Of a DNA stretch of 64,000 bases, positions 16,529-64,000 are shown in pieces. The stretch is from the IMG/VR virus record IMGVR_UViG_3300025018_000091; one strand, 5' to 3'. The notes below the pieces were generated by a model. The model was not told the DNA's origin, did no database searches, and saw only the letters and a program-made list of their open reading frames with translations. Source of the stretch: a virus. Its lineage: Duplodnaviria; Caudoviricetes. Position 1 is the stretch's first letter. Each line of letters opens with the position of its first letter. The position numbers and the translations under genes were made by a program.

Positions 16529-17511
16529 ATATCTTCTATTCTTTCATGTAAAAATTTAATGTTTTCATCATATCTTGTATTAACTGATTTTGAAAAATTT
16601 AAATCACTATCTAAATCATAAATAATATCACTTAATCCAAAATGTTCTGATGCCAGACTGTTAATAATGCATTCTGTATCATTATAATCTATTGTAATTA
16701 AACTATATTTACCATTGTAGTATGCATCAGCCAATAAACTTGTTTGACCACTGCAAACAAATAAGTTTGCATTATATAGATTACATGTATATTCATCAAT
16801 ATTTGACATGTCTTTCAATATAATGTTAGGATAATCTTCATTACAATCTTCAGAAAAAATAATAGAGTCTGTGTATCTTTTTAGAAGACCAATGATATTT
16901 TTATTGGGTTGAATCATTCCTGCCACAATATTATGTTTACATATCACAGATGGTTTACCAATAGTATGATAAGGTCTTATCCATTCAAATTCTTCTTTTA
17001 ATTTCAAATCACTATTTGCATCTCCTAAATGAGAATATACAAAATTATAATTGGAATTATCAATCATATTCATAATCCTTTGATTATTTAGAGGAACTTT
17101 ATGAAATAGATAATAGAATCTTTTGAAGAGACCTAAGTTATATTTCTGTTCTTGTGGCAATGCAAAATTTAATAATGAAGAGCTGCATTGCCATAATGTA
17201 GTATTCAATACCATAGCAATATGAGATGTGAAATATTCACAGTCACTTATTATCAAATCAGGATTAAAACTTTTTACTTGATGAAAATATGTTTCAAAAT
17301 TTTCATTGTCTAATGATATATGCTCTGGTTTGAACATATTATAAAGACAATCTAAGGTCCAATCTATATTGATATTATTAGGACTGGATTTTTTATATGT
17401 GGCTATTTTTAATTGATGTGGCTGATTTTTTATTGCATCAACAAATCTCTCCAATTGGATTTTAGAATTAGTATGATTAGAACATGCATACAATATTTTT
17501 AATCTATCCAT
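16525..17511 (-). CDS. Putative GT-B-fold glycosyltransferase-like protein with a replacement N-terminus
   Basis: KILYA, PDLIISDCE, FVCSGQTSLLADA resemble GT-B nucleotide-binding segments; ATG overlaps the endonuclease stop. Confidence 0.55.
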   Translation of the reverse strand: MDRLKILYACSNHTNSKIQLERFVDAIKNQPHQLKIATYKKSSPNNINIDWTLDCLYNMFKPEHISLDNENFETYFHQVKSFNPDLIISDCEYFTSHIAMVLNTTLWQCSSSLLNFALPQEQKYNLGLFKRFYYLFHKVPLNNQRIMNMIDNSNYNFVYSHLGDANSDLKLKEEFEWIRPYHTIGKPSVICKHNIVAGMIQPNKNIIGLLKRYTDSIIFSEDCNEDYPNIILKDMSNIDEYTCNLYNANLFVCSGQTSLLADAYYNGKYSLITIDYNDTECIINSLASEHFGLSDIIYDLDSDLNFSKSVNTRYDENIKFLHERIEDI

Positions 17512-18215
17512 GATTTATTGTTTTTTATTCTAGATATAGTATCTCTATGTACACCAAATAATACCGCAATTTTTTTATTAGAAACACCCCGCGTAATAAG
17601 ATATCTAATAATATTTACTTGTTCTTCAGTTAATTTAGCTGTAGCTAAACGATGTTCCTTACTTTTAGGAATACCTCTTTTAGATTGTGATATTTTATTG
17701 CAAAAATCTTGAGATCTTTTTCTGCCTTTTAATGGTGAGTTTTTATTTTGATTTGGATGTTTTCCTGGTTCATATTTATTGGTGAGAGATTTGGATATTT
17801 TTTCTTTTATATCTTCAGGTGTTGATTTACCTTTATTCCAAGGATCTTTTCCCAAATGCGCTTCAGATATTTTACGTCTAGCCTCTTTAGACATTTTATG
17901 TCCAGAAGTTCCGTCACCACCATCAGTTAAATTGTATAGGCAGTATCCATCATTCTTTAATTTTAGAATCCATTCTTGTTCAAGAGCAAATGCAATATTT
18001 TCTTCTACAATATCATCTACTATAGATGTTAATAAAAAATTATCATACCCATATTTATTTAAGGCAGCATGTAAATAATAATATGAATTTGGATATTTTG
18101 TTTTTCCACCTCTAGCGATTTTTAAGTGATCTCTAAATCTATCATGTAAATTTTTAGTTTTACCAACATAAATTTTACCATTTATTGTATTTATTAAAAA
18201 ATATATGCAATACAT
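17499..18215 (-). CDS. GIY-YIG homing endonuclease with NUMOD3 repeats and C-terminal HTH
   Basis: CIYFLINTINGKIYVGKT, YNLTDGGDG, RRKISEAHLGK, SRIKNNKSW. Confidence 0.92.
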   Translation of the reverse strand: MYCIYFLINTINGKIYVGKTKNLHDRFRDHLKIARGGKTKYPNSYYYLHAALNKYGYDNFLLTSIVDDIVEENIAFALEQEWILKLKNDGYCLYNLTDGGDGTSGHKMSKEARRKISEAHLGKDPWNKGKSTPEDIKEKISKSLTNKYEPGKHPNQNKNSPLKGRKRSQDFCNKISQSKRGIPKSKEHRLATAKLTEEQVNIIRYLITRGVSNKKIAVLFGVHRDTISRIKNNKSWID

Positions 18216-18292
18216 ATTATATTACAATAATATTGATAGAAGCAGCAAGCGCCATAATTATTTGATGCCGCATATAATATCTTTAATTTCAT
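18194..18292 (-). pseudogene. Stranded N-terminal fragment of the 16525..17511 gene
   Basis: 32-codon mini-ORF MKLKILYAASNNYGA..., ATGA-coupled to the exonuclease stop, matching MDRLKILYACSNHTNS. Confidence 0.75.
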
Positions 18293-50487: not shown

Positions 50488-50933
50488 TATTTATTACCTT
50501 TTTTATTCAGTATATTTGGATAACCATATTGAACTGGTTTGACTTCAGTGATTTTATGATTATTCAGTCTAGCTGCAATTATTTTTTTTTCTTCTTCTAT
50601 TGCGGCTAAGTGTAATTCTGATATTTTTTTAGCACGTAATGATATAGGATTTATTTCTGAAAAATCTGGATCTTCATTCTCATCTTTTTGTGTGGGAATA
50701 AATGGTTTAGGTCTATTTTCTCGATCTTCATATACACTTTCAGCTTTCGGGTTTTCCTCTTTCATAACCTTAACAAGCATTATATCTTGCTCAGGATTTT
50801 GTATAATTAGATAGCTTTTACTATCTTCAGATCGTAAAATGAAATCTTCATCCCAAATATCTACAATTCCTTCAACACTCGTTCCATTTCGAAATAATAT
50901 CTTAACTAATTGACCTGGTACTAATTTTTTCAT
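50487..50933 (-). CDS. Hypothetical protein
   Basis: 148-aa ORF with an Sm-like N-terminal pattern. Confidence 0.65.
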   Translation of the reverse strand: MKKLVPGQLVKILFRNGTSVEGIVDIWDEDFILRSEDSKSYLIIQNPEQDIMLVKVMKEENPKAESVYEDRENRPKPFIPTQKDENEDPDFSEINPISLRAKKISELHLAAIEEEKKIIAARLNNHKITEVKPVQYGYPNILNKKGNK

Positions 50934-51250
50934 AAAAATGCCTTTAACTTTTTTGTTTTCTTAAATAAACGAATTAATTCAGACTCTTTTGCATGAAGAA
51001 TAGCGCACCGTGCCATAGAATCATTTAAAGTGATGTCATAGATATAATAAATAACTGTTATATCATCTGAGGACCAATCATAATCATTATTTTCTAATTC
51101 TGATAAACATATTTCTGCTATATCTTCTCTATCAATATTAACATGTATTGTAGCAAATCCAATATTATATATGTTAATTACATCTACAATAAATTTGGAA
51201 CTACAAACACCAACTTTAGAAAAAAAATCTATACAATTAAGTATCTTCAT
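50930..51250 (-). CDS. Hypothetical protein ending KTKKLKAFL
   Basis: 106-aa ORF, ATGA-coupled on both sides. Confidence 0.65.
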   Translation of the reverse strand: MKILNCIDFFSKVGVCSSKFIVDVINIYNIGFATIHVNIDREDIAEICLSELENNDYDWSSDDITVIYYIYDITLNDSMARCAILHAKESELIRLFKKTKKLKAFL

Positions 51251-51849
51251 ACAACTCTATCTAATATAGACATATCTAAACCTAAACCTTCTACACTAAC
51301 AAATGCATAATCTAGATCTGCTGGTTTATCTGTCATTTGTTTTAGAAATGCTAAATCACCATATGTAGAAATATTAAACCCAAAGGAACTGAAAATATCT
51401 TTATATTTATCGGGAAGCGGAGTTGAGCGATCAATAGAATTATTACTTAATTTACTATTCAATAACACATTAAATTTGTATTCATTCATTATGCCTTCAA
51501 CAGTCATAAAAGATATAGAGGTAAGCCTACGCTTAGCTTTAGTTACCTTATTTAAATAAACCCAATCAATATATTCTTTTAGAAGAACGGGGTCAGAGGT
51601 TAGGTTTGATGCCAACTTTTTAACTTGAAAAACCTCAAAAGATTTTGATGGCGCGGGGCTATTGAATTTGAATTTGTACTTCACTTTATATGTGTCATAA
51701 TACTTTTTGCAAAAATAACCTAAAATATGCGGGACTTTCCATTTAGAAGTATCTAAAGAATCAATCTCTTCAAATTTCTCAAAAAGCCGTTTATATTTCT
51801 CATTGGGAACATCATTTAAGTTATAATAAGAATCATTTAGTGAGTTCAT
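51247..51849 (-). CDS. Conserved hypothetical protein in the replication operon, with a replacement N-terminus
   Basis: 200-aa ORF; ATG overlaps the HNH gene stop. Confidence 0.75.
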   Translation of the reverse strand: MNSLNDSYYNLNDVPNEKYKRLFEKFEEIDSLDTSKWKVPHILGYFCKKYYDTYKVKYKFKFNSPAPSKSFEVFQVKKLASNLTSDPVLLKEYIDWVYLNKVTKAKRRLTSISFMTVEGIMNEYKFNVLLNSKLSNNSIDRSTPLPDKYKDIFSSFGFNISTYGDLAFLKQMTDKPADLDYAFVSVEGLGLDMSILDRVV

Positions 51850-52652
51850 TGTATATTTCCTGAGTGTCTAGATCTTGTTACGCCGTCTAGAACATTTTGT
51901 TTTGAAGGATATGGTCTAAGATTTGTAAGACACCAACATTTATTGAAATTATCATCTGCCATAGACATATATGGCAAATCAGATTGTGGAATAATATGGT
52001 CTATATTCCATGTCCATGTAGATTGATCATTGTCATTCCAAGTTTTTGAATCATATTTACCATAATTGCTCCAGTTCATCCAAGGCTCAAAGTGTTGTTC
52101 AAGATGTTGTTTTAGTTCCATTATTGTATAGGGCAAATACTGTAATATAGATTTCCCTGATTTTGATCTATTATTGGCAGCTAAAGATATCCAAATACTT
52201 GTAGACAATCTGGATCTTAATTTAAAAGCAGGATCTATAGATTTTCTATTTTTTGAATATGAATTGTTTTTAAGGCGAATTTTATCTATGTTATTTTGAG
52301 CATATTGTTTTTGGTATTCTGCTATTTCTTGTTTATGATCTAAAATATATTGTTTGTGATATTCTTCAATCTTCTCTTTATTGTCTTTTGCATATTTTTT
52401 ATTTCTAGATAATTCGCGTTCTTTATTGGTGATATAGAAATTTTTCCTGTAGACACTTCGCTCTTTTTGATGCTTAAGATAATATTCTTTATTATTTTTT
52501 GATATAGTCATCTTATTTTTTAATTTATATTCTTGCACTCTTTTATTATAGCACTCTTTACAACATTTTCTATACGCTTTAGAGTCGGCTCTAAAATGGA
52601 AACTATCTAATTCCTTGTCTTTACCACACATGTTGCACTTTATTGTATCCAT
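51846..52652 (-). CDS. HNH-type endonuclease (putative homing endonuclease)
   Basis: N-terminal CxxC...CxxC, basic helical repeats, FEPWMNW.NYG, WNIDHIIP, NLRP. Confidence 0.85.
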   Translation of the reverse strand: MDTIKCNMCGKDKELDSFHFRADSKAYRKCCKECYNKRVQEYKLKNKMTISKNNKEYYLKHQKERSVYRKNFYITNKERELSRNKKYAKDNKEKIEEYHKQYILDHKQEIAEYQKQYAQNNIDKIRLKNNSYSKNRKSIDPAFKLRSRLSTSIWISLAANNRSKSGKSILQYLPYTIMELKQHLEQHFEPWMNWSNYGKYDSKTWNDNDQSTWTWNIDHIIPQSDLPYMSMADDNFNKCWCLTNLRPYPSKQNVLDGVTRSRHSGNIQ

Positions 52653-52655
52653 GTT

Positions 52656-52763
52656 TTACCTCTGATTGCATACAATAATATGTACGGGTTTCCAATATAA
52701 TTTGCGATAGTTTTCGTTCGGCGCGTCTGTCAACGAGCCGCCCGTGGTATCTTTTTCTTTCAT
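52656..52763 (-). pseudogene. Stranded N-terminal fragment of the 51247..51849 gene
   Basis: GGAG RBS plus 35-codon ORF MKEKDTTGGSLTDAPNENYRKLY..., matching LNDVPNEKYKRLF. Confidence 0.78.
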
Positions 52764-52805
52764 TATTAATCTCCAAATTACAATGTAATTACGAATGTTT
52801 ACGCG

Positions 52806-54275
52806 TCAACCACTCTTCATTTCTTTGCATTTGATGACTCTGAAGCCTTTTTCTGAAGAATAAATTTCGGATCTAATTACCGAATGTTTTTTGAGAAATT
52901 TTATCTGATCGTAAAAATCAACAATAGCTGCAAACTTTTTACCAGGAAAATATCTAATAACTCTACCTATTCTTTGTAACGCTCTTATACTGCTCTTACC
53001 ACCACCACATAACACTAAAGCATTTAACATAGGAATATCAACACCAAGATCAAAAATGGTACTGGCAAGAATAGCTTGAATTTCACCAGCAACTAACATT
53101 TCTTTTACTTCTGTACGCCTTTTAATAGAATCATTACCATACAGCATTTCACATTTAATACCAGCGTCAGTCATCATATCAAATAATAATTGACCATGTT
53201 TAATATGTTTAAACAAAATAAGTGGAGTATATTTTTTATCTAAAAGTTCTTTAGTTTGATCTATAATAATTATATTTCTTATATCATTTTCAGTTATATA
53301 GCTTTTATATACTGTTTGATATTGTGCTAACGGCATACTCATATGTGGTACTGCAATAAACTTAATGATAGGCTGAGCTAAGATTTTCTTTTCTATTAAT
53401 TCAGATGCAGATACATCTACAATTTGTTCACCAAGAATACCATTAATTAATAAATCAGTGTTATCATCTCTATATGGAGTTCCACTAAAACCATATATGT
53501 GTTCTGGATCAATGTTTTTATGTATTGATTGAATAGTATCACAAGTAACAACATGACACTCATCAAATATATGTACTTTAGTTTGTTTTAATAACTTTAT
53601 AATCTTCTCTTTTTGAGTTAAATCTACTTTTTCTTCACAAGAAATTTCGTCATCAGTACAAATGTTTTTCTTATTAATATTTAAAGCACTTCCAATTGTC
53701 CAAATACTAGCAATATTAATTCTCTCTATATTGCAAACACCATCACCAATATACCCTATTTTTTCCTTAAATAGAGTTGTAAATAAATCATGAGTTTGTT
53801 TTAATAAGTCTAAACCTATTACATATATAATGGTGGGTTTATTTAATCTGGCAGCTATCATAGCTGTGCAAAGTGTTTTGCCAGATCCAGTACAAGCTCT
53901 TACAATACCGTTACGAGAATTACAAGTAGCATCAACTATTCTATCTTGATAATCTCTGGGGACCATCTTAATCTTTTTCAATACTTTAGATAGATCTATT
54001 GGTTTATTTACTTTTAATGGCGGTCTTAAATCTTCAATAATATAAGTTTCATGATGATCTTTTAGAAACTCTTCAACTACAGAAAGTAGTCCATAGAAAA
54101 AATTTCCTTTCTTACCTATTAGATAGGTTACGCCATTCCATCCATTTTTATATGCCTCGGTGTATTCAACACCATTCATCTTATAGGATAATTTTGAGCG
54201 TAATACTCTGAATAGACTGGCATCTTCTGTCACAAATTGACATGCCTTGTTGTCATGAATTATTATTTTATGCAT
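52806..54275 (-). CDS. Superfamily-2 DNA helicase (UvsW/XPB-like)
   Basis: RDYQ, CTGSGKT, DECH, GFSGTP, IFDLGVDIP, QRIGRVIR. Confidence 0.92.
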   Translation of the reverse strand: MHKIIIHDNKACQFVTEDASLFRVLRSKLSYKMNGVEYTEAYKNGWNGVTYLIGKKGNFFYGLLSVVEEFLKDHHETYIIEDLRPPLKVNKPIDLSKVLKKIKMVPRDYQDRIVDATCNSRNGIVRACTGSGKTLCTAMIAARLNKPTIIYVIGLDLLKQTHDLFTTLFKEKIGYIGDGVCNIERINIASIWTIGSALNINKKNICTDDEISCEEKVDLTQKEKIIKLLKQTKVHIFDECHVVTCDTIQSIHKNIDPEHIYGFSGTPYRDDNTDLLINGILGEQIVDVSASELIEKKILAQPIIKFIAVPHMSMPLAQYQTVYKSYITENDIRNIIIIDQTKELLDKKYTPLILFKHIKHGQLLFDMMTDAGIKCEMLYGNDSIKRRTEVKEMLVAGEIQAILASTIFDLGVDIPMLNALVLCGGGKSSIRALQRIGRVIRYFPGKKFAAIVDFYDQIKFLKKHSVIRSEIYSSEKGFRVIKCKEMKSG

Positions 54276-54278
54276 ATC

Positions 54279-55127
54279 TTACTTAATGCCAAATATCTTA
54301 TGAAAAAATTCTACAAATTTATTTTTTGGAACTGTAAGCATCTCCATTGGGGTCTCTATAACGTCATGGTCAGAGATTAAATCTAAATCAATTGGCAATG
54401 GCGGCGTAATTGTTATTCTTTCCGACTCTTTATGATGTAAGCTTTCGGCAAATGCTTTAAATTCTTCGACAGTCCCCTTATACTGATTCCTATCCACAAC
54501 AACATTGATACCAGGAACACGCAGAACTGTATCACCTTTTGCGCATTGATCTCCAGATCTTTGCCAAATAGTCCAGCCTTTTGTTTTCCATATATAAGGA
54601 ACATATATATCTGGAGTTTTAGTATAAGCAGCTAACCATAAAGGATAGCGATTTAGCTTTTTAACTAATTCATCGCCAGGATACCACTCACCTTTATCGT
54701 TTTCTTTTCCACCATACTTATCAAAATATGGTCCACCAGTATAAACAATTGGCATTACATTTGTTTCTCTCTCCACGGTCTCTAAAAATGTAATTACCCA
54801 ATTAATAAATTGTTGTTTTGATAATTTATTTCGGTCATCTTCTATATCAAGAACAAGCATATCGCCTTTATCTAAAGGACCTACTGTTTTAATAAAGTTC
54901 TTTACTTCTTTCACAGGATCATTTATAGTTCGGGCAAAATGATAGGCACCTCTAATTAGCCCAGCGTCTTTTATTCCCTTCCAATTATAAGAGAATCTTT
55001 TAGTAACATACGTTTCGCCCTCAGTGGCTTTACAGAAAGCATATTCAATACCGCTAGCTTTTACTTTATCCCATTTAGGAAATCCTTGAACATCAGAGAC
55101 ATCAATACCTTCTAACATATTACCCAT
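54279..55127 (-). CDS. GH25 lysozyme (endolysin candidate)
   Basis: GIDVSDVQG, KATEG, GAYHF, LDIE, LWLA.Y, WTIWQ, VDRN; start at 55127 with GAGGGG RBS. Confidence 0.92.
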   Translation of the reverse strand: MGNMLEGIDVSDVQGFPKWDKVKASGIEYAFCKATEGETYVTKRFSYNWKGIKDAGLIRGAYHFARTINDPVKEVKNFIKTVGPLDKGDMLVLDIEDDRNKLSKQQFINWVITFLETVERETNVMPIVYTGGPYFDKYGGKENDKGEWYPGDELVKKLNRYPLWLAAYTKTPDIYVPYIWKTKGWTIWQRSGDQCAKGDTVLRVPGINVVVDRNQYKGTVEEFKAFAESLHHKESERITITPPLPIDLDLISDHDVIETPMEMLTVPKNKFVEFFHKIFGIK

Positions 55128-55314
55128 ATTTTTTCCCCTCAATTCCTAAAACTCTAGCAACAAAGCCATCTGCCAGCGTTAACTCGCCAGCAGATAGCTT
55201 TTTAATTACAGGATATAGTTCTGCCCCACACGAACATTCATCAGATTTTGAATTTTTACTCAATATCCATATTCTTCCACAATGCACGCAATGTGCAACG
55301 CTATATCTTCTCAT
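55120..55314 (-). CDS. Small Cys-motif protein
   Basis: CVHC...CSC; probable start MRRYSV at 55314. Confidence 0.55.
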   Translation of the reverse strand: MRRYSVAHCVHCGRIWILSKNSKSDECSCGAELYPVIKKLSAGELTLADGFVARVLGIEGKKYG

Positions 55315-55318
55315 GAAA

Positions 55319-56674
55319 TTACTTTCTGCGGTCAACAACCCCACCAACTAATTTTCCAAATGCTGATTGTTTCTGAGAAATCTTATCTTTTATTTTTTGA
55401 GCAGCAGATACATTTTCTTCTGTTCCAGTATCTAATTGTAAACTAAGATTTCTACTATCATCTTTGCCCTTAACAATCTTCATATGATCCTGAGCATCTT
55501 TCTTCAATTGAGTTACTCTGGATTCTGGCAATCCCAATCCTGTAAATATAGAGTATATCTTTACAACTGGTTCAGGAATATCTATAGTATAAATACCCTT
55601 GTATACTCCCTTTGGAGATCCACATTGATCATTTACAATAGCCATTGCATAGTTAACACTAGAACTTGGAATTTGCGCCCAAACTTCTTTGTTTGCAGCA
55701 ATAATTACACCAACATATTTTGATTGCTTTAAATCAAAACCACCAGCAAGTAAGTTTCCATTCAAATTATTGATGACAGCCTCTGCAATAGCAGTATCTT
55801 CAGCATAATTTTCAACAGTCAACTCACCATAAATGGTTAAGCCTTCGCCGTCTGTAAATAACTTTCCCCACTCCATCGGATCAAGTCCCTTAACAGAAGA
55901 TGCCATAGATGATAGAGTATTAAACATATCAATTGGTTCAACAATAGCCTTGTTAGCTGTTGGATAGAAATCAACTTGGCTTATATGTTGATAAATAGAT
56001 TCAATCTTAGCATTATCAACAACAATAAGGTTATTGACTCTCTTTGTTTGAGTGAACTTTGCTAATTTAGAAAGCGTCTCTAATGCGTTTGATTTGGTTT
56101 GCGCATCTTCTGTTTCCATTGGCAATGCAGCGATAACAACTAATGGCTTGCCACTATCTGCTAATAGATCTACTAAGGTTTCACATGAACCTGCGCCTGA
56201 ACCGCCGCCTAAACTTAAGCATAAAACATTTACTAATGCATTTGCAAGCTTATCATTAATTAGTTGTAACATCTCACCACGATGTGACTCAGCAGCAGCT
56301 TTACCAATTTCTATTTCTTTAGCTGCGCCACCAAGTCCATACTCTAACAAAAGCTTATTAGAATCTGGAATATCAATATACTTTAAATCTTGCATAGCCG
56401 TATTAATAGCAATAGCGTCATAACCCAATTTATAAAATGATTCAGCTATTCTGGAGCCAGCTTGCCCGGTTCCTATAATACCTAATACTAAACTTCTTTC
56501 TTTCTTTGCAACAATTTTTGCTGCCATGGGAGTCTCCTGTTTTGCTTGACTTTTTGCTTTAAGGGCTGCTAATTTATCCATATCAACCGAATCTTCAGAT
56601 GGTTTTGTTTCTTGAGAAACGTCATCTATTAGTTCTTCTGGTTTTGTTTCATCTGTAATCGAAGTTGCCGACAT
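55319..56674 (-). CDS. Tubulin/FtsZ-family GTPase (PhuZ/TubZ/CetZ-like)
   Basis: IIGTGQAGSRIA, AINTA..DL, GLGGA, signature SLGGGSGAG, LIVVDN, T7-like LDPME. Confidence 0.92.
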   Translation of the reverse strand: MSATSITDETKPEELIDDVSQETKPSEDSVDMDKLAALKAKSQAKQETPMAAKIVAKKERSLVLGIIGTGQAGSRIAESFYKLGYDAIAINTAMQDLKYIDIPDSNKLLLEYGLGGAAKEIEIGKAAAESHRGEMLQLINDKLANALVNVLCLSLGGGSGAGSCETLVDLLADSGKPLVVIAALPMETEDAQTKSNALETLSKLAKFTQTKRVNNLIVVDNAKIESIYQHISQVDFYPTANKAIVEPIDMFNTLSSMASSVKGLDPMEWGKLFTDGEGLTIYGELTVENYAEDTAIAEAVINNLNGNLLAGGFDLKQSKYVGVIIAANKEVWAQIPSSSVNYAMAIVNDQCGSPKGVYKGIYTIDIPEPVVKIYSIFTGLGLPESRVTQLKKDAQDHMKIVKGKDDSRNLSLQLDTGTEENVSAAQKIKDKISQKQSAFGKLVGGVVDRRK

Positions 56675-60597: not shown

Positions 60598-60654
60598 TCA
60601 TTTCATCCATTTATTTACAAAAATATCTCTGGCTGATTTATACAATTGGTAACT
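60598..60654 (-). pseudogene. Stranded C-terminal fragment of the 61594..62280 glycosyltransferase
   Basis: Frame reads SYQLYKSARDIFVNKWMK-stop, matching TYKLYKNARSIFIKKWEK. Confidence 0.78.
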
Positions 60655-61597
60655 TTTTTCTATTTCCAGCACAATCGGGGCACCAATGTCCCCTTTCTAT
60701 AGAATATCCAATAGCTGTCCATATATGTCCATTTTTACATTTCCAAATTAATTTTGTATTATAATTAATATATATATTACTCAAACACTCGCCATCCCTA
60801 TTTTTTGCCAACTCTTTATATTTTTGGATTTTATCAGAGTATAATTTGGTTAAATCCAAAAAAATATCTCTAGGTATAAATCCATATTCTATTAAAATAT
60901 TATTAATTATATCAGTAATTGATTTTAAATTAACATGATTATTGAAATATGGAATTAAAATCAATAAAACATTATTTTCTGAACATAATTTTTGTTTAAG
61001 TAAATCATCTTCTTTTCTTTTATCTAATTGTTTTTGAGTTTTAATAAAAAAACCATCTATTTCATAATGTTGAATTCCTTGATATTCAAAAGCAATTTTT
61101 AATTCAGAATTAAATCCATCTAATTCTAATAATGATCCTGATTTTTTTCTTAACCATTTTGGTTTAGCCTTAGAAAACGGTTTTTTAAAAAATTGTTCAA
61201 AAAATAATCTACATATATTCTCTCCAACATGAGTATTGCAAATAGGGCACCAAGAATTTTTTGATTTCACATTATTAAAATTTGCCTTCCATATATGTCC
61301 AAATTTGCACTCCCATTTTAATGCTGTGGCAGAATTTACATATTTTGTAGATCTACAATAACCATCTTTGGATTTAGCAAAATATATACAGTCTTGTAAT
61401 GTTAATTTTTTATTTTGAGAACAAACTGGACACCATTTACCACATTTAATATTTGCTGGAGATGCCCGCCAAATATGACCAAACTCACATTCCCATAATA
61501 ATTTAGAATGAATAGATACATACTCTTTAGATAAACATTTTCCGCCTTTATCTACTGCATATTTATTGCAAATAGATAAAAAATCATATTTGGTCAT
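60638..61597 (-). CDS. PD-(D/E)xK-type endonuclease with repeated zinc-ribbon modules (putative homing endonuclease)
   Basis: Three GxCLS..Y...KL.W.C..GH.W...WCP.C modules around ELDGF...IAFEYQG.QHY; ATG 61597 overlaps the GT stop. Confidence 0.8.
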   Translation of the reverse strand: MTKYDFLSICNKYAVDKGGKCLSKEYVSIHSKLLWECEFGHIWRASPANIKCGKWCPVCSQNKKLTLQDCIYFAKSKDGYCRSTKYVNSATALKWECKFGHIWKANFNNVKSKNSWCPICNTHVGENICRLFFEQFFKKPFSKAKPKWLRKKSGSLLELDGFNSELKIAFEYQGIQHYEIDGFFIKTQKQLDKRKEDDLLKQKLCSENNVLLILIPYFNNHVNLKSITDIINNILIEYGFIPRDIFLDLTKLYSDKIQKYKELAKNRDGECLSNIYINYNTKLIWKCKNGHIWTAIGYSIERGHWCPDCAGNRKKLPIV

Positions 61598-62280
61598 TTT
61601 ATTATATGTTTTTCCCATTTTTTTATGAAAATACTTCTTGCATTTTTATATAGTTTATAAGTATTTAACTGCTTACTACTGATTTTACCAAAATGAACAA
61701 CCGGAATATCTACGACACTTAATTGTATTCCCTTTTCTCGTGCTCTAAAAGATAAATCGGTATCTTCAAAGTAACAAAAGAACTCTTCACTAAATATCTC
61801 TTTATTACCAGAAATATCTAATTTTTGCCATATTTCTTTTGAACTAGCAATACACCAACCAGATAGATATGACCTTTTAGTTGGAAGTTGCCCATCTGCT
61901 TCCATTACAAATTCTAATTTATCATTCAATAATCCCATTGTTGGTCCACATAAAGCATCTGAACACTTATCAATAAGCGGCTTTGTCCAATCAGAATAAT
62001 TAGATTTAACTCTGATATCATTGTTTAAAAACAAAACATTAGGGGCGCTGGAATATAAATAACCATAATTACACCCACTTGCAAATCCTGAATTATGACC
62101 CATTTCTTTATACACAATTTCTTTTGAATTTTTTAATTGAGATTTTGTTTCATCTGTACTACCATTATCTATGATAATTATCTCATGATCATTTGATAGT
62201 TGAGATAAGTCTTTTAAACATGATTTTGTAAAGTTATATTTATTAAATACAGGAATAACTATACTTAATATCTTATTCAT
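61594..62280 (-). CDS. GT2 glycosyltransferase with a replacement C-terminus
   Basis: SIVIPVFN, IDNGSTD, GFASGCN.G, FLNND, YFEDTDL. Confidence 0.9.
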   Translation of the reverse strand: MNKILSIVIPVFNKYNFTKSCLKDLSQLSNDHEIIIIDNGSTDETKSQLKNSKEIVYKEMGHNSGFASGCNYGYLYSSAPNVLFLNNDIRVKSNYSDWTKPLIDKCSDALCGPTMGLLNDKLEFVMEADGQLPTKRSYLSGWCIASSKEIWQKLDISGNKEIFSEEFFCYFEDTDLSFRAREKGIQLSVVDIPVVHFGKISSKQLNTYKLYKNARSIFIKKWEKHIIK

Positions 62281-62695: not shown

Positions 62696-63722
62696 AATTA
62701 TTCACAACATCTTTTAACGCCTGAGCCGCTTTATCAACATCAGGTTCAAATACTTTTGCATATGGCGATGGTTCCCAATATTGCATTCTTTTATCTGCTC
62801 TAATTTCTTTTCCATCTATTAGAACGGAATTATCATCGTTCATAAAATCTAATTGACCACCATAACGAGGCGCAACAACAATTTTATTAGCTCCAAATCC
62901 TTCTAAACCTGGCATCCAAAAACATTCAGCATGAGACATTGAAAATACAATATCACAAGCATTGTATAATGATTCAATATCTGTAATAAAATGATCAATT
63001 ATCTCTACTTCACCACGCTTTTTATATTCCATACAAAAATCTCTATAAATATCATTGAATGGTATACTGCTCGTATGAGTATGTGATTGTGGGCTGGTTC
63101 TTGATACCTTCAAAACCAAACAAACATCATCACTTTTAGTAAAAGCTTTACCATATGCTTTCAAAACATTTGGAATATTCTTTCTAAGATGTGGTTGAGC
63201 TATATTAACTAATATTTTATATTTCTTTTTAGTTTTTAGTGGATATTTATCTGCCGATTTAAACTTATCTAAATGTATACCATGTGGAATAACAACTTGA
63301 TGATCTGATGGCATGCCATTATCTGTAAATATCTTTTTAGAAAAATTAGATGACGGTAATACTTTATCTACAGATTTATAATATTTTGCAAAAGCAGGTG
63401 GTAAAACTGTTGTCTCGTAATTCCAAATTCCAAATCTATTTTTATCGCCTCTTACAAAATAATAAGGAAAATTCTTAAGTGCAGTATAGGATAGTTGACA
63501 TTCGTATAATTTATCTGGCTCTCTACCGAAAATATGTTGAGGTTCATTTTCATTTATGAATCCAACTAAATTATTTTTAAGATCATTTGGGAAATATGTA
63601 TTTCCATTTGTTGAAAATATATGTACTTCATTATTTTGTTTAATCAACTCTCTACATATATTTTGAGCTACAATTGACCAAGAAAAGTTTTTGGCAGCAA
63701 AACCATACCATAAAATCTTCAT
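62595..63722 (-). CDS. GT4 (GT-B) glycosyltransferase
   Basis: VIPHGI, RKN, YNACD..F..S.AECF.MP.LE, YGGQLDF, YTW. Confidence 0.9.
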   Translation of the reverse strand: MKILWYGFAAKNFSWSIVAQNICRELIKQNNEVHIFSTNGNTYFPNDLKNNLVGFINENEPQHIFGREPDKLYECQLSYTALKNFPYYFVRGDKNRFGIWNYETTVLPPAFAKYYKSVDKVLPSSNFSKKIFTDNGMPSDHQVVIPHGIHLDKFKSADKYPLKTKKKYKILVNIAQPHLRKNIPNVLKAYGKAFTKSDDVCLVLKVSRTSPQSHTHTSSIPFNDIYRDFCMEYKKRGEVEIIDHFITDIESLYNACDIVFSMSHAECFWMPGLEGFGANKIVVAPRYGGQLDFMNDDNSVLIDGKEIRADKRMQYWEPSPYAKVFEPDVDKAAQALKDVVNNYGGYHAKFSPKMQELVTEYTWGKVTQKIINLCK

Positions 63723-64000
63723 CTTCTATTCCCGTTTTTAATATTTTCTTTAGCAGAATAAGGTCTCAAATTTTCCAATGACCAACATTTCTTAAAATTT
63801 TCATCATTCATCGATGTATATGGTAATTTACTTTGTGGAATTATATGATCTATATTCCATTTCCAAGTATTTTTATCTTGATCATTCCAATTACTTAGAT
63901 CATATTTACCATGATTGTCCCAATTCATCCATGGCTCAAATAAAGATTCTAGATAACTTTTTAACTCATCAATAGTATAATCTAGATAATTTATACAAGA
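63719..64000 (-). CDS. HNH-type endonuclease, paralogue of 51846..52652; 5' end beyond the window
   Basis: Frame open to 64000: YTIDELKSYLESLFEPWMNWDNHGKYD...WNIDHIIP...NLRP. Confidence 0.85.
   Translation of the reverse strand, partial: SCINYLDYTIDELKSYLESLFEPWMNWDNHGKYDLSNWNDQDKNTWKWNIDHIIPQSKLPYTSMNDENFKKCWSLENLRPYSAKENIKNGNRR

Follow-up and report, generated by a model that had tools for sequence, protein, structure and literature searches.

Why should a phage genome carry, immediately ahead of an endonuclease gene, a short open reading frame (ORF) that resembles the start of the very gene lying behind that endonuclease? The question is raised by a locus on the minus strand of a stretch of 64,000 nucleotides (nt) from the IMG/VR virus record IMGVR_UViG_3300025018_000091, the source of which is an uncultured aquifer jumbo phage. 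This whole stretch is referred to below as the window, and all coordinates are positions in it unless a related locus is named. At this locus a 268-amino-acid (aa) ORF for a predicted HNH-type nuclease separates a mini-ORF from a complete 200-aa gene. We consider it very likely that the locus holds a free-standing homing endonuclease element, in which a leader and the nuclease gene are joined to a foreign version of the target gene's first ~45 codons, and that the mini-ORF is the start of the resident gene, left stranded upstream. We hold the architecture and its history with high confidence, and from the comparison of related loci we infer the cleavage specificity and the homing pathway. The parts of the locus are as follows.

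52806..54275, minus strand: UvsW/ResIII-type superfamily-2 helicase, the upstream neighbour (Pfam ResIII, Helicase_C, DEAD, UvsW_N)
52782..52809, minus strand: promoter-like TTGACG-N16-TACATT ahead of the resident start (consensus scan)
52698..52763, minus strand: stranded resident 5' end, codons 1-22, MKEKDTTGGSLTDAPNENYRKL, with a GGAG ribosome site just upstream (blastn)
52677..52694, minus strand: kept WKPVHI codons of the resident gene (about codons 38-43), adjoining the left end of the element
52653..52676, minus strand: short leader that forms the element's left end, AGG ribosome site included (sequence)
51846..52652, minus strand: predicted nuclease gene, 268 aa
51709..51849, minus strand: replacement 5' end of the 200-aa gene, codons 1 to ~47 (nucleotide identities)
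51247..51708, minus strand: body of the 200-aa gene (segment identities)
51247..51849, minus strand: complete 200-aa gene

Results

The mini-ORF and the empty site in relatives

The original prediction, made from the letters of the window, had pointed to a mini-ORF with a good ribosome site and to its likeness to the gene start downstream, and both observations were borne out. The mini-ORF (52763..52656) has 35 codons, reads MKEKDTTGGSLTDAPNENYRKLYWKPVHIIVCNQR and has GGAG 8 nt ahead of its ATG; over 13 codons SLTDAPNENYRKL and NLNDVPNEKYKRL share 7 residues, 6 of these 7 being written with different codons. Taken alone, a match of 7 residues in 13 could be chance. The homology of the mini-ORF to resident N-termini is established because the mini-ORF (MKEKDTTGGSLTDAPNENYRKLYWKPVHII...) matches the N-termini of the nuclease-free homologues P0010-P0014 at 24-25 of 30 residues, because tblastn finds it in the related loci L020 and L021 with E ~1e-12, and because blastn identity to these two loci (79-82%) continues unbroken from the helicase gene, the flank by which we set the 'resident' level of identity, into the mini-ORF as far as position 52699. 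Since the blastn alignment has no break up to that position, codons 1-22 of the mini-ORF form one continuous resident sequence with the helicase flank. The N-terminus of the mini-ORF is of the type found in the majority of homologues, unlike that of the gene downstream.

The mini-ORF is made up of resident codons 1-22, a gap of ~15 codons (after ...NYRKL) and the WKPVHI codons at 52694..52677, and this internal gap rules out a simple truncation of the resident gene. In relatives the remnant is frameshifted (L018, L046), without its ATG (L019) or partly deleted; it is non-functional and decaying.

L020 and L021 are close relatives without the nuclease gene, their helicases being 88-92% and their lysozyme-like genes 79% identical at the aa level. 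In both, the helicase gene runs directly into the 200-aa gene, and the gene start is MLEKDTTGGSLTDAPNENYRK (MLEKDTTGGSLTDAPNENYRKFF... or MQEKDTTGG...), the type of the mini-ORF. The empty allele that had been predicted, a MKEKDTTGG-type terminus joined to the conserved body, was thus found. In blastn, window positions 55200..52699 align up to position 3538 of the relatives and the alignment resumes at the same 3538 from window position 51785 onward; the insertion relative to L020/L021 is about 0.9-1.0 kilobases (kb). The site is polymorphic for presence and absence, being occupied in the window, L018, L007/L008, L005 and the contig of P0016, and vacant in L020, L021 and no fewer than 20 other loci, in which the helicase is followed directly by the 200-aa gene with no nuclease gene between.

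The 200-aa gene

The 200-aa gene has 535 homologues, nearly all of 196-206 aa and mostly on large viral contigs (350-470 kb). The majority of them start '...TGG(E/S)LTD.PN..Y.KFF....EI..L.....WKPVH.L.YFC', and the window gene, together with P0002-P0006, P0009 and P0016, starts 'MNSLNDSYY.LNDVPNEKYKQLFEKF...SKWKVPHILGYFC', the WKPVH motif reading WKVPH in this replacement 5' end. Wherever the start is non-standard, the locus has the nuclease gene or scars of it, and the replacement type of N-terminus occurs at such loci only. The ATG of the gene overlaps the stop codon of the nuclease gene (ATGA), as had been claimed.

In a codon alignment of the window gene with L020/L021, nt identity is 40-43% over codons 1-21 (24-29% at third positions, which are saturated), 69-71% over codons 22-37 and 63-67% over codons 38-47, and rises to 83-85% over codons 48-90 and 87-90% over codons 91-130. 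The identity over codons 48-130 equals or exceeds that of the helicase flank (79-82%), and L020 and L021, when compared with each other, have an even identity along the gene (81-87%). Because codons 1-47 are diverged while codons 48-130 are at the level of the flank, the working gene is a chimera, in which a foreign 5' end of ~47 codons has been set on a body of resident level. The boundary between the two is sharp and lies near codon 47; the co-conversion tract comprises codons 1 to ~47, foreign, with resident sequence on both flanks, and the same is found in L007.

The last part of the gene has a pattern of its own. Codons 131-200 (51247..51459) are ~57-70% nt identical to every relative, L018 included, which is 85-90% identical upstream, and over codons 131-165 L018, L020 and L021 are ~80% identical to one another. 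The segment lies next to the variable small ORF 51250..50930, and its pattern points to a recombination patch or mosaic segment distinct from the rest of the gene.

Recurrence at the same junction

The same layout was found at the same junction (directly after …AAACCnGTACATATT) with nuclease lineages that are merely 51-55% identical (L007/L008, L005). L018 (85% nt identity across the region) is built in the same way, save for a 1-nt deletion in its remnant. In L007/L008 the nuclease is 55% identical to that of the window and is preceded by a complete 45-codon remnant, MPKKKEIDLTGGILNEVPNEYYKKFFDKFEEIKILEIEKWKPVHIF, while the gene after it is full-length and has a third type of N-terminus (MKNDNINIKLEGAPNEKYEKFF...SSWSVTHLLGYFC); the nuclease ORF of L007 carries a premature TAA. 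In L005 the nuclease is 51% identical, the N-terminus is of a fourth type (...EKWGPAHLLGYFC) and ~20 nt of remnant are left, and on the contig of P0016 a 265-aa ORF, P0123, 71% identical to the window nuclease, lies directly upstream of a YY-type gene. Each of three nuclease lineages has its own replacement 5' end, and nuclease gene and replacement end diverge together.

In the window, L018, L048, L005 and L007, AAACCnnTACATATT followed by (A/T)TTG(T/C)A stands right before the nuclease leader, and AAACCnnTACATATT is kept even where the rest of the remnant has been lost (L005). Since AAACCnnTACATATT precedes the leader in all five loci, the insertion point is fixed, just after the WKPVHI codons.

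L007 is an independent replicate of the window. Its sister P0089/L050 left aside, P0096 and P0097 are the nearest to the body of its gene: the conserved part is 81-84% identical and the variable C-terminal part 70-76%, against at most 56% for every other protein. The best match of its remnant is again with the N-termini of P0096/P0097 (67-76%), and its working N-terminus is 37-40% identical to theirs. In L007, as in the window, body and remnant belong to one lineage and the working start to another.

The neighbourhood of these loci holds further sequences that may be noted separately. An ORF of 116-123 aa, absent from the window, lies between helicase and remnant in L007/L008 (L007:4667-5038) and similarly in L050 (2575-2925). 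Other members of the HNH family, some of them truncated, occur elsewhere in the replication cluster of relatives (L003:7703-8263, L004:3522-4199, L050:162-795), either between the DnaC-like gene and an orf148 homologue or ahead of the helicase. In a 354-kb relative ~1 kb of additional sequence (L001:3600-4651, the same as L019:1100-2151) breaks into the helicase gene itself, behind residue ~134; it could be another mobile insertion, be it an intron, an intein or a nuclease gene.

Decay of the nuclease gene

The nuclease gene is found in several states of decay. An interior deletion in L019/L001 has left ~60 nt of its 5' end and ~75 nt of its 3' end, behind a remnant without ATG; L048 and L049 keep the nuclease from about residue 123 to its end only, with a frameshift in addition in L049; and in L050 the last 26 nuclease codons remain. 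In L046/L047 the remnant, with the frameshift of L018, is followed by 24 nt that match the 3' end of the nuclease gene at 20 of the 24 positions, and then by the ATG. The replacement start is retained in all decayed loci (L019, L048, L049, L050, L046) and outlives the nuclease gene. The premature stop in L007, the partial deletions in L019, L048, L049 and L050 and the 24-nt scar in L046 together make up the stages of a cycle of invasion, degeneration and loss.

These loci bear on the observation that the original prediction had named as contrary to itself, namely an endonuclease-free homologue that starts with the MNSLND-type terminus and still has the mini-ORF upstream. L046/L047 have formally this composition, but they carry the 24-nt scar and share the L018 frameshift. 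Because of the scar and of the graded series of deletions in other loci, we read them as cases of secondary nuclease loss and not as a refutation.

The predicted nuclease and its likely target codons

The 268-aa protein belongs to a family of at least 559 members, almost none of which has a Pfam annotation. Residues C6, C9, C31, C34, D218, H219, N244 and N253 are invariant in the family alignment, and the architecture consists of an N-terminal CxxC...CxxC zinc ribbon, helical YxxxNKE repeats and a C-terminal DH...N...N of the HNH or His-Me finger type, the D218-H219...N244...N253 block sitting within W.IDHIIPqS...NLRP...N. Among 34 family members there are weak Pfam matches to HNH_4 (in 9) and HNH_5 (in 3), and the PHROG matches of the 268-aa protein are named 'endonuclease', 'endonuclease VII' and 'HNH endonuclease'. 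For its predicted model (mean predicted local distance difference test, pLDDT, 85.9) the best AlphaFold-DB clusters carry the name HNH endonuclease, with E values from 1.6e-6 to 1e-3, and several of the matches are confined to the C-terminal part; sequence searches of the PDB gave nothing beyond a faint likeness between the N-terminal zinc ribbon and Hpy99I.

Among 15 distinct naive alleles the motif WKPVH is present in 10 and WKP(L/G)H in 2 more, and all 10 distinct element-linked alleles are altered at these codons, to KVPH (AAA GTn CCn) in the window group, to S/NVTH in L007 and L050 and to GPAH in L005. The remnants that retain the stretch all keep WKPVHI or a near variant. These comparisons are suggestive of a nuclease recognition sequence that spans the WKPVH codons, with the insertion at or next to the cut. 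Because the WKPVHI piece is kept in L005 and across the 15-codon gap of the window, it is suggested to be useful to the element.

The original prediction had taken the abundance of synonymous changes in the first codons for a recoding that confers resistance to cleavage. This part had to be given up in favour of the ordinary, saturated divergence of an old foreign allele, and the changes that determine resistance likely lie ~20 codons further on, in the WKPVH codons. The proposed union of an endonuclease with a cleavage-resistant terminus is accordingly retained in part: a foreign terminus of ~47 codons is present and recurs at the same site, but the recoded stretch is probably not the resistance determinant.

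Discussion

Alternative explanations

The main surviving alternative, which we regard as unlikely, is an ordinary intergenic free-standing nuclease of the T4 Seg/Mob type, which would cut its neighbour at a distance and co-convert the 5' part of the gene, the remnant being the accidental by-product of one imprecise repair. This explanation agrees with ours in that the nuclease travels with the 5' end of the gene, and differs on whether the insertion is in the gene and whether the remnant has a role in mobility. The co-conversion of flanks on which it draws is standard in phage homing (PMC2988022); remnants do decay freely, and in L005 the nuclease stands between helicase and gene with ~20 nt of remnant. 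Yet each remnant resembles the resident allele of its own lineage (the window that of L020-L021, L007 that of P0096-P0097), for which one inherited accident fails to account, and the last 15-20 nt of the resident 5' part adjoin the leader in five of the five loci that retain the region, L005 included, which fits a fixed insertion within the gene.

A local tandem duplication of the 5' end of the gene, with rapid divergence of one copy and a nuclease landing between the copies, would have to be considered given that both copies are homologous and adjacent, but it is very improbable. The new copy is saturated over codons 1-21 (24-29% third-position identity), the flanks and codons 48-130 are at 79-90%, and the boundary between the two is sharp; moreover, the type of new start co-varies with the nuclease lineage across distant genomes, and the same pattern is repeated in L007. 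The abrupt boundary, the saturation and the replicate in L007 led us to reject duplication and divergence in situ.

A self-splicing intron or an intein, with the mini-ORF as exon 1 or N-extein and a product that joins mini-ORF to body, would suit a nuclease gene inside a coding region behind a short ORF with a good ribosome site, but it is scarcely credible and was rejected, since the downstream gene is complete, with its own ATG and an N-terminus that aligns with those of the 535 homologues of ~200 aa, since the upstream fragment is a decaying duplicate that repeats residues and supplies no missing ones (broken by a 15-codon gap in the window and a frameshift in L018 and L046, and without ATG in L019), since the nuclease is read in a frame of its own, from start codon to stop codon, and since an Rfam scan of the whole window found no family, group I and II introns included, at gathering score. 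An insertion that does without intron or intein, as originally proposed, is upheld.

Several observations weigh against the homing element as we describe it, with its leader, HNH-type nuclease gene and replacement 5' end. The ten element-linked alleles represent three independent lineages and the WKPVH association is statistically weak, some naive alleles being likewise without WKPVH; target site, cut position and immunity we infer from sequence comparison alone. The right-hand boundary of the foreign segment could lie anywhere from codon 44 to codon 48, the sequence there being conserved. The nuclease of L005, its remnant almost gone, resembles an ordinary intergenic free-standing gene, and the remnant may be dispensable for mobility. 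The 268-aa protein of the window itself has no Pfam match at threshold, and in comparisons of its model with the PDB by Foldseek and VIA-align zinc fingers and long helices prevailed among the matches, which spoke neither for nor against an HNH fold. The earlier assignment of the protein to the HNH nucleases falls short at the Pfam threshold but agrees with the invariant DH...N...N and with the PHROG and AlphaFold-DB matches, and an HNH-type, predicted nuclease is accepted, with moderate confidence, as the best reading.

Proposed mechanism of homing

Under the homing-element reading, the nuclease would, on co-infection, cut naive alleles at or near the WKPVH codons (TGGAAACCnGTnCAT), and the break would be repaired from the element-bearing genome. 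The conserved gene body (83-90% nt identity even between distant phages) would serve as the right homology arm; the left would be the remnant, in whole or at any rate in its final ~20 nt, and the kept WKPVHI codons would at the same time be the left half of the target. By this repair the recipient would acquire both the nuclease gene and the replacement 5' end, and its own start would be left stranded. The carrier would be protected twice, the old copy being interrupted at the site and the new copy having altered WKPVH codons. Later the nuclease gene would decay and be deleted, and the replacement start would stay.

The whole unit would be expressed from the resident promoter-like site at 52809..52782. 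A TTGAC...TTACATTGTAA-like string stands ahead of the gene or the remnant in L018, L046, L019 and L007; the number of sites that the consensus scan gave in the region is not above chance, and the promoter call is one of conservation judged by eye. The site is probably the promoter of the resident gene, now serving the remnant, the nuclease gene and the 200-aa gene. The leader (52653..52676), of which the motif ATTG(T/C)AT..AA is common to the window, L018, L048 and L005, contains the stop codon of the remnant ORF; the nuclease would be translated from its own AGG site, with its ATG 3 nt after that stop, and the 200-aa gene by coupling at ATGA, so that the full-length protein would still be made.

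Genomic setting

On the minus strand the order of genes is UvsW/ResIII helicase, mini-ORF, 268-aa ORF, 200-aa ORF, two small ORFs, IstB/DnaC-like ATPase and DnaB-type helicase. The 200-aa protein, for which we found no Pfam, PHROG, PDB or named AlphaFold-DB match, has a confident, mostly helical model. The position of its gene between the UvsW-like helicase and the DnaC/DnaB-like genes is fixed across hundreds of contigs, and because of this fixed place in the replication cluster a replication role is suggested. Two genes upstream of the helicase there is a gene of the tubulin/FtsZ family (55319-56674, minus strand; Pfam Tubulin and TubZ-like_C), the position of which is conserved in relatives.

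Tubulin-like, DnaB, baseplate and related genes in the window, and relatives on viral contigs of 350-470 kb, provide the phage context. The sequencing runs that carry the stretch are of aquifer and groundwater DNA only, with no RNA run among those listed. Contigs from four runs comprise the window's own form and small fragments, and none spans across the nuclease gene. A blastn search of GenBank phage records (n=50,697) with the region gave no match.

Further cases and wider meaning

The same architecture had been claimed twice more in the window, with different nuclease families. One of these claims, for a GIY-YIG nuclease, was confirmed by the nuclease-free locus L052; the other, for a 326-aa protein, was checked in part only. 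The GIY-YIG case spans 17499-18292 on the minus strand: a stranded MKLKILYAASNNY... begins at 18292, ATGA-coupled to an upstream gene for a DEDDh exonuclease, and is followed by the gene for a GIY-YIG/NUMOD3/HTH endonuclease (18215..17499) and by a 328-aa gene that starts MDRLKILYACSNHT. In L052, without the GIY-YIG nuclease, this same gene starts MNSLKILYAASNNY, the stranded type. The second case (60598-62280, minus strand) is a mirror image at the 3' end of a gene: a GT2 glycosyltransferase ends ...YKLYKNARSIFIKKWEKHIIK, overlapping the start of a 326-aa zinc-ribbon gene (61618..60638, with DUF4379 repeats), after which comes a stranded ...YQLYKSARDIFVNKWMK and stop. L058 and L059 share the 326-aa gene; seven other relatives are without it, none of them close enough to tell which C-terminus is native.

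A second member of the HNH family lies at the edge of the window (63719-64000, minus strand; 64000..63719), ATGA-coupled to the start of a GT4 glycosyltransferase. At the homologous GT4 site of L044 (L044:2900-3760) a clear stranded MRIKIQQFLFGANHSW precedes a frameshifted nuclease gene and MRIKIQQFLFGQGAHSW follows it. The window's own genome copy (L051:2100-3004) has no clear counterpart of the stranded GT4 start that was expected there; ~4 codons (KILIL) at most might be a remnant. On the evidence of L044, the HNH family has the same layout at a second target, a glycosyltransferase gene.

Replacement of a gene terminus may be a general route by which phage homing endonucleases of any family enter coding sequence without intron or intein, the ~20-nt target end being a selected left arm; we give this wider reading an even chance. 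It draws on three or four nuclease genes in the window (two HNH, one GIY-YIG and one 326-aa zinc-ribbon gene) and on the HNH family at two or more target genes. If it is true, the unit is a natural 'cleave-and-rescue' gene drive, which moves gene starts, together with their context of start codon and ribosome site, between distant phages.

A spare gene end would constitute a third route into phage coding sequence, beside self-splicing carriers (introns and inteins) and split genes. It would account for unannotated mini-ORFs and unexpectedly divergent termini next to phage nuclease genes, both of which can mislead gene calling, pangenome clustering and phylogenies, and homing of this kind can carry short stretches of coding sequence from phage to phage where divergence would otherwise prevent recombination. 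The series of empty, occupied and decayed loci, moreover, offers a defined target and substrates for the biochemistry of a large nuclease family (at least 559 members) that Pfam does not cover.

Comparison with known systems

The fungal mitochondrial analogue named in the original prediction proved apt, and the closest match to the element is indeed with the mORF 'gene hybrids' of the Allomyces atp6 type, which have been described for atp6 of Allomyces macrogynus, atp6, atp9, cox2 and nad3 of Glomus sp., atp9 of Rhizopus oryzae and cox2 of Mortierella verticillata (PMC3630166). In these hybrids, identity to relatives is 91-98% for the native terminus, as against 64-81% for the inserted copy (PMC3630166). 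As in them, an endonuclease ORF lies inside a protein-coding gene without intron or intein, a foreign copy of the terminus completes the gene, and the native terminus stays beside the insert and is the closer of the two to relatives (here ~80%, against 40-70% nt identity for the new copy, and again so in L007). Whereas the mORF hybrids have their 3' or C-terminal end replaced, it is here the 5' end, including the start codon, that is replaced and coupled to the nuclease stop. The enzymes are LAGLIDADG or GIY-YIG nucleases of mitochondrial genomes in the one case and an HNH-type enzyme of a jumbo phage in the other, and here, unlike in the hybrids, it falls to the promoter and ribosome site of the resident gene to drive the entire unit. 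By analogy, the element would work like an mORF without being a member of the mitochondrial group.

Among phage systems, the seg and mob genes of T4, known for intronless homing and marker exclusion (PMC2988022), are likewise free-standing nuclease genes in a replication or nucleotide-metabolism cluster; like the present element they are present or absent among relatives, have foreign flank co-converted and overlap the frame of a neighbour (PMC2988022). They normally lie between genes and have no duplicated gene end (PMC2988022), whereas here the insertion is within a gene and brings a duplicate terminus. Phage genes split by the insertion of an endonuclease gene include nrdA of Aeh1 (mobE), the topoisomerase genes 39/60 of T4 (mobA) and gene 43 of Aeromonas phage 25 (PMC2988022; see also PMC3045599), and there are 'fractured genes' in which split inteins rescue the product (PMC2677866). 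In these cases too an important coding region accommodates a free-standing nuclease gene with no intron around it, but split genes give two polypeptides, reassembled or joined by split inteins, whereas here one full-length polypeptide is encoded and the displaced piece is junk. Our search of the phage literature in the open-access library found no report of terminus replacement. The element described here is a phage form, acting at the 5' end and with an HNH-type enzyme, of the arrangement that fungal mitochondria have, and within the present group of phages it seems to recur.

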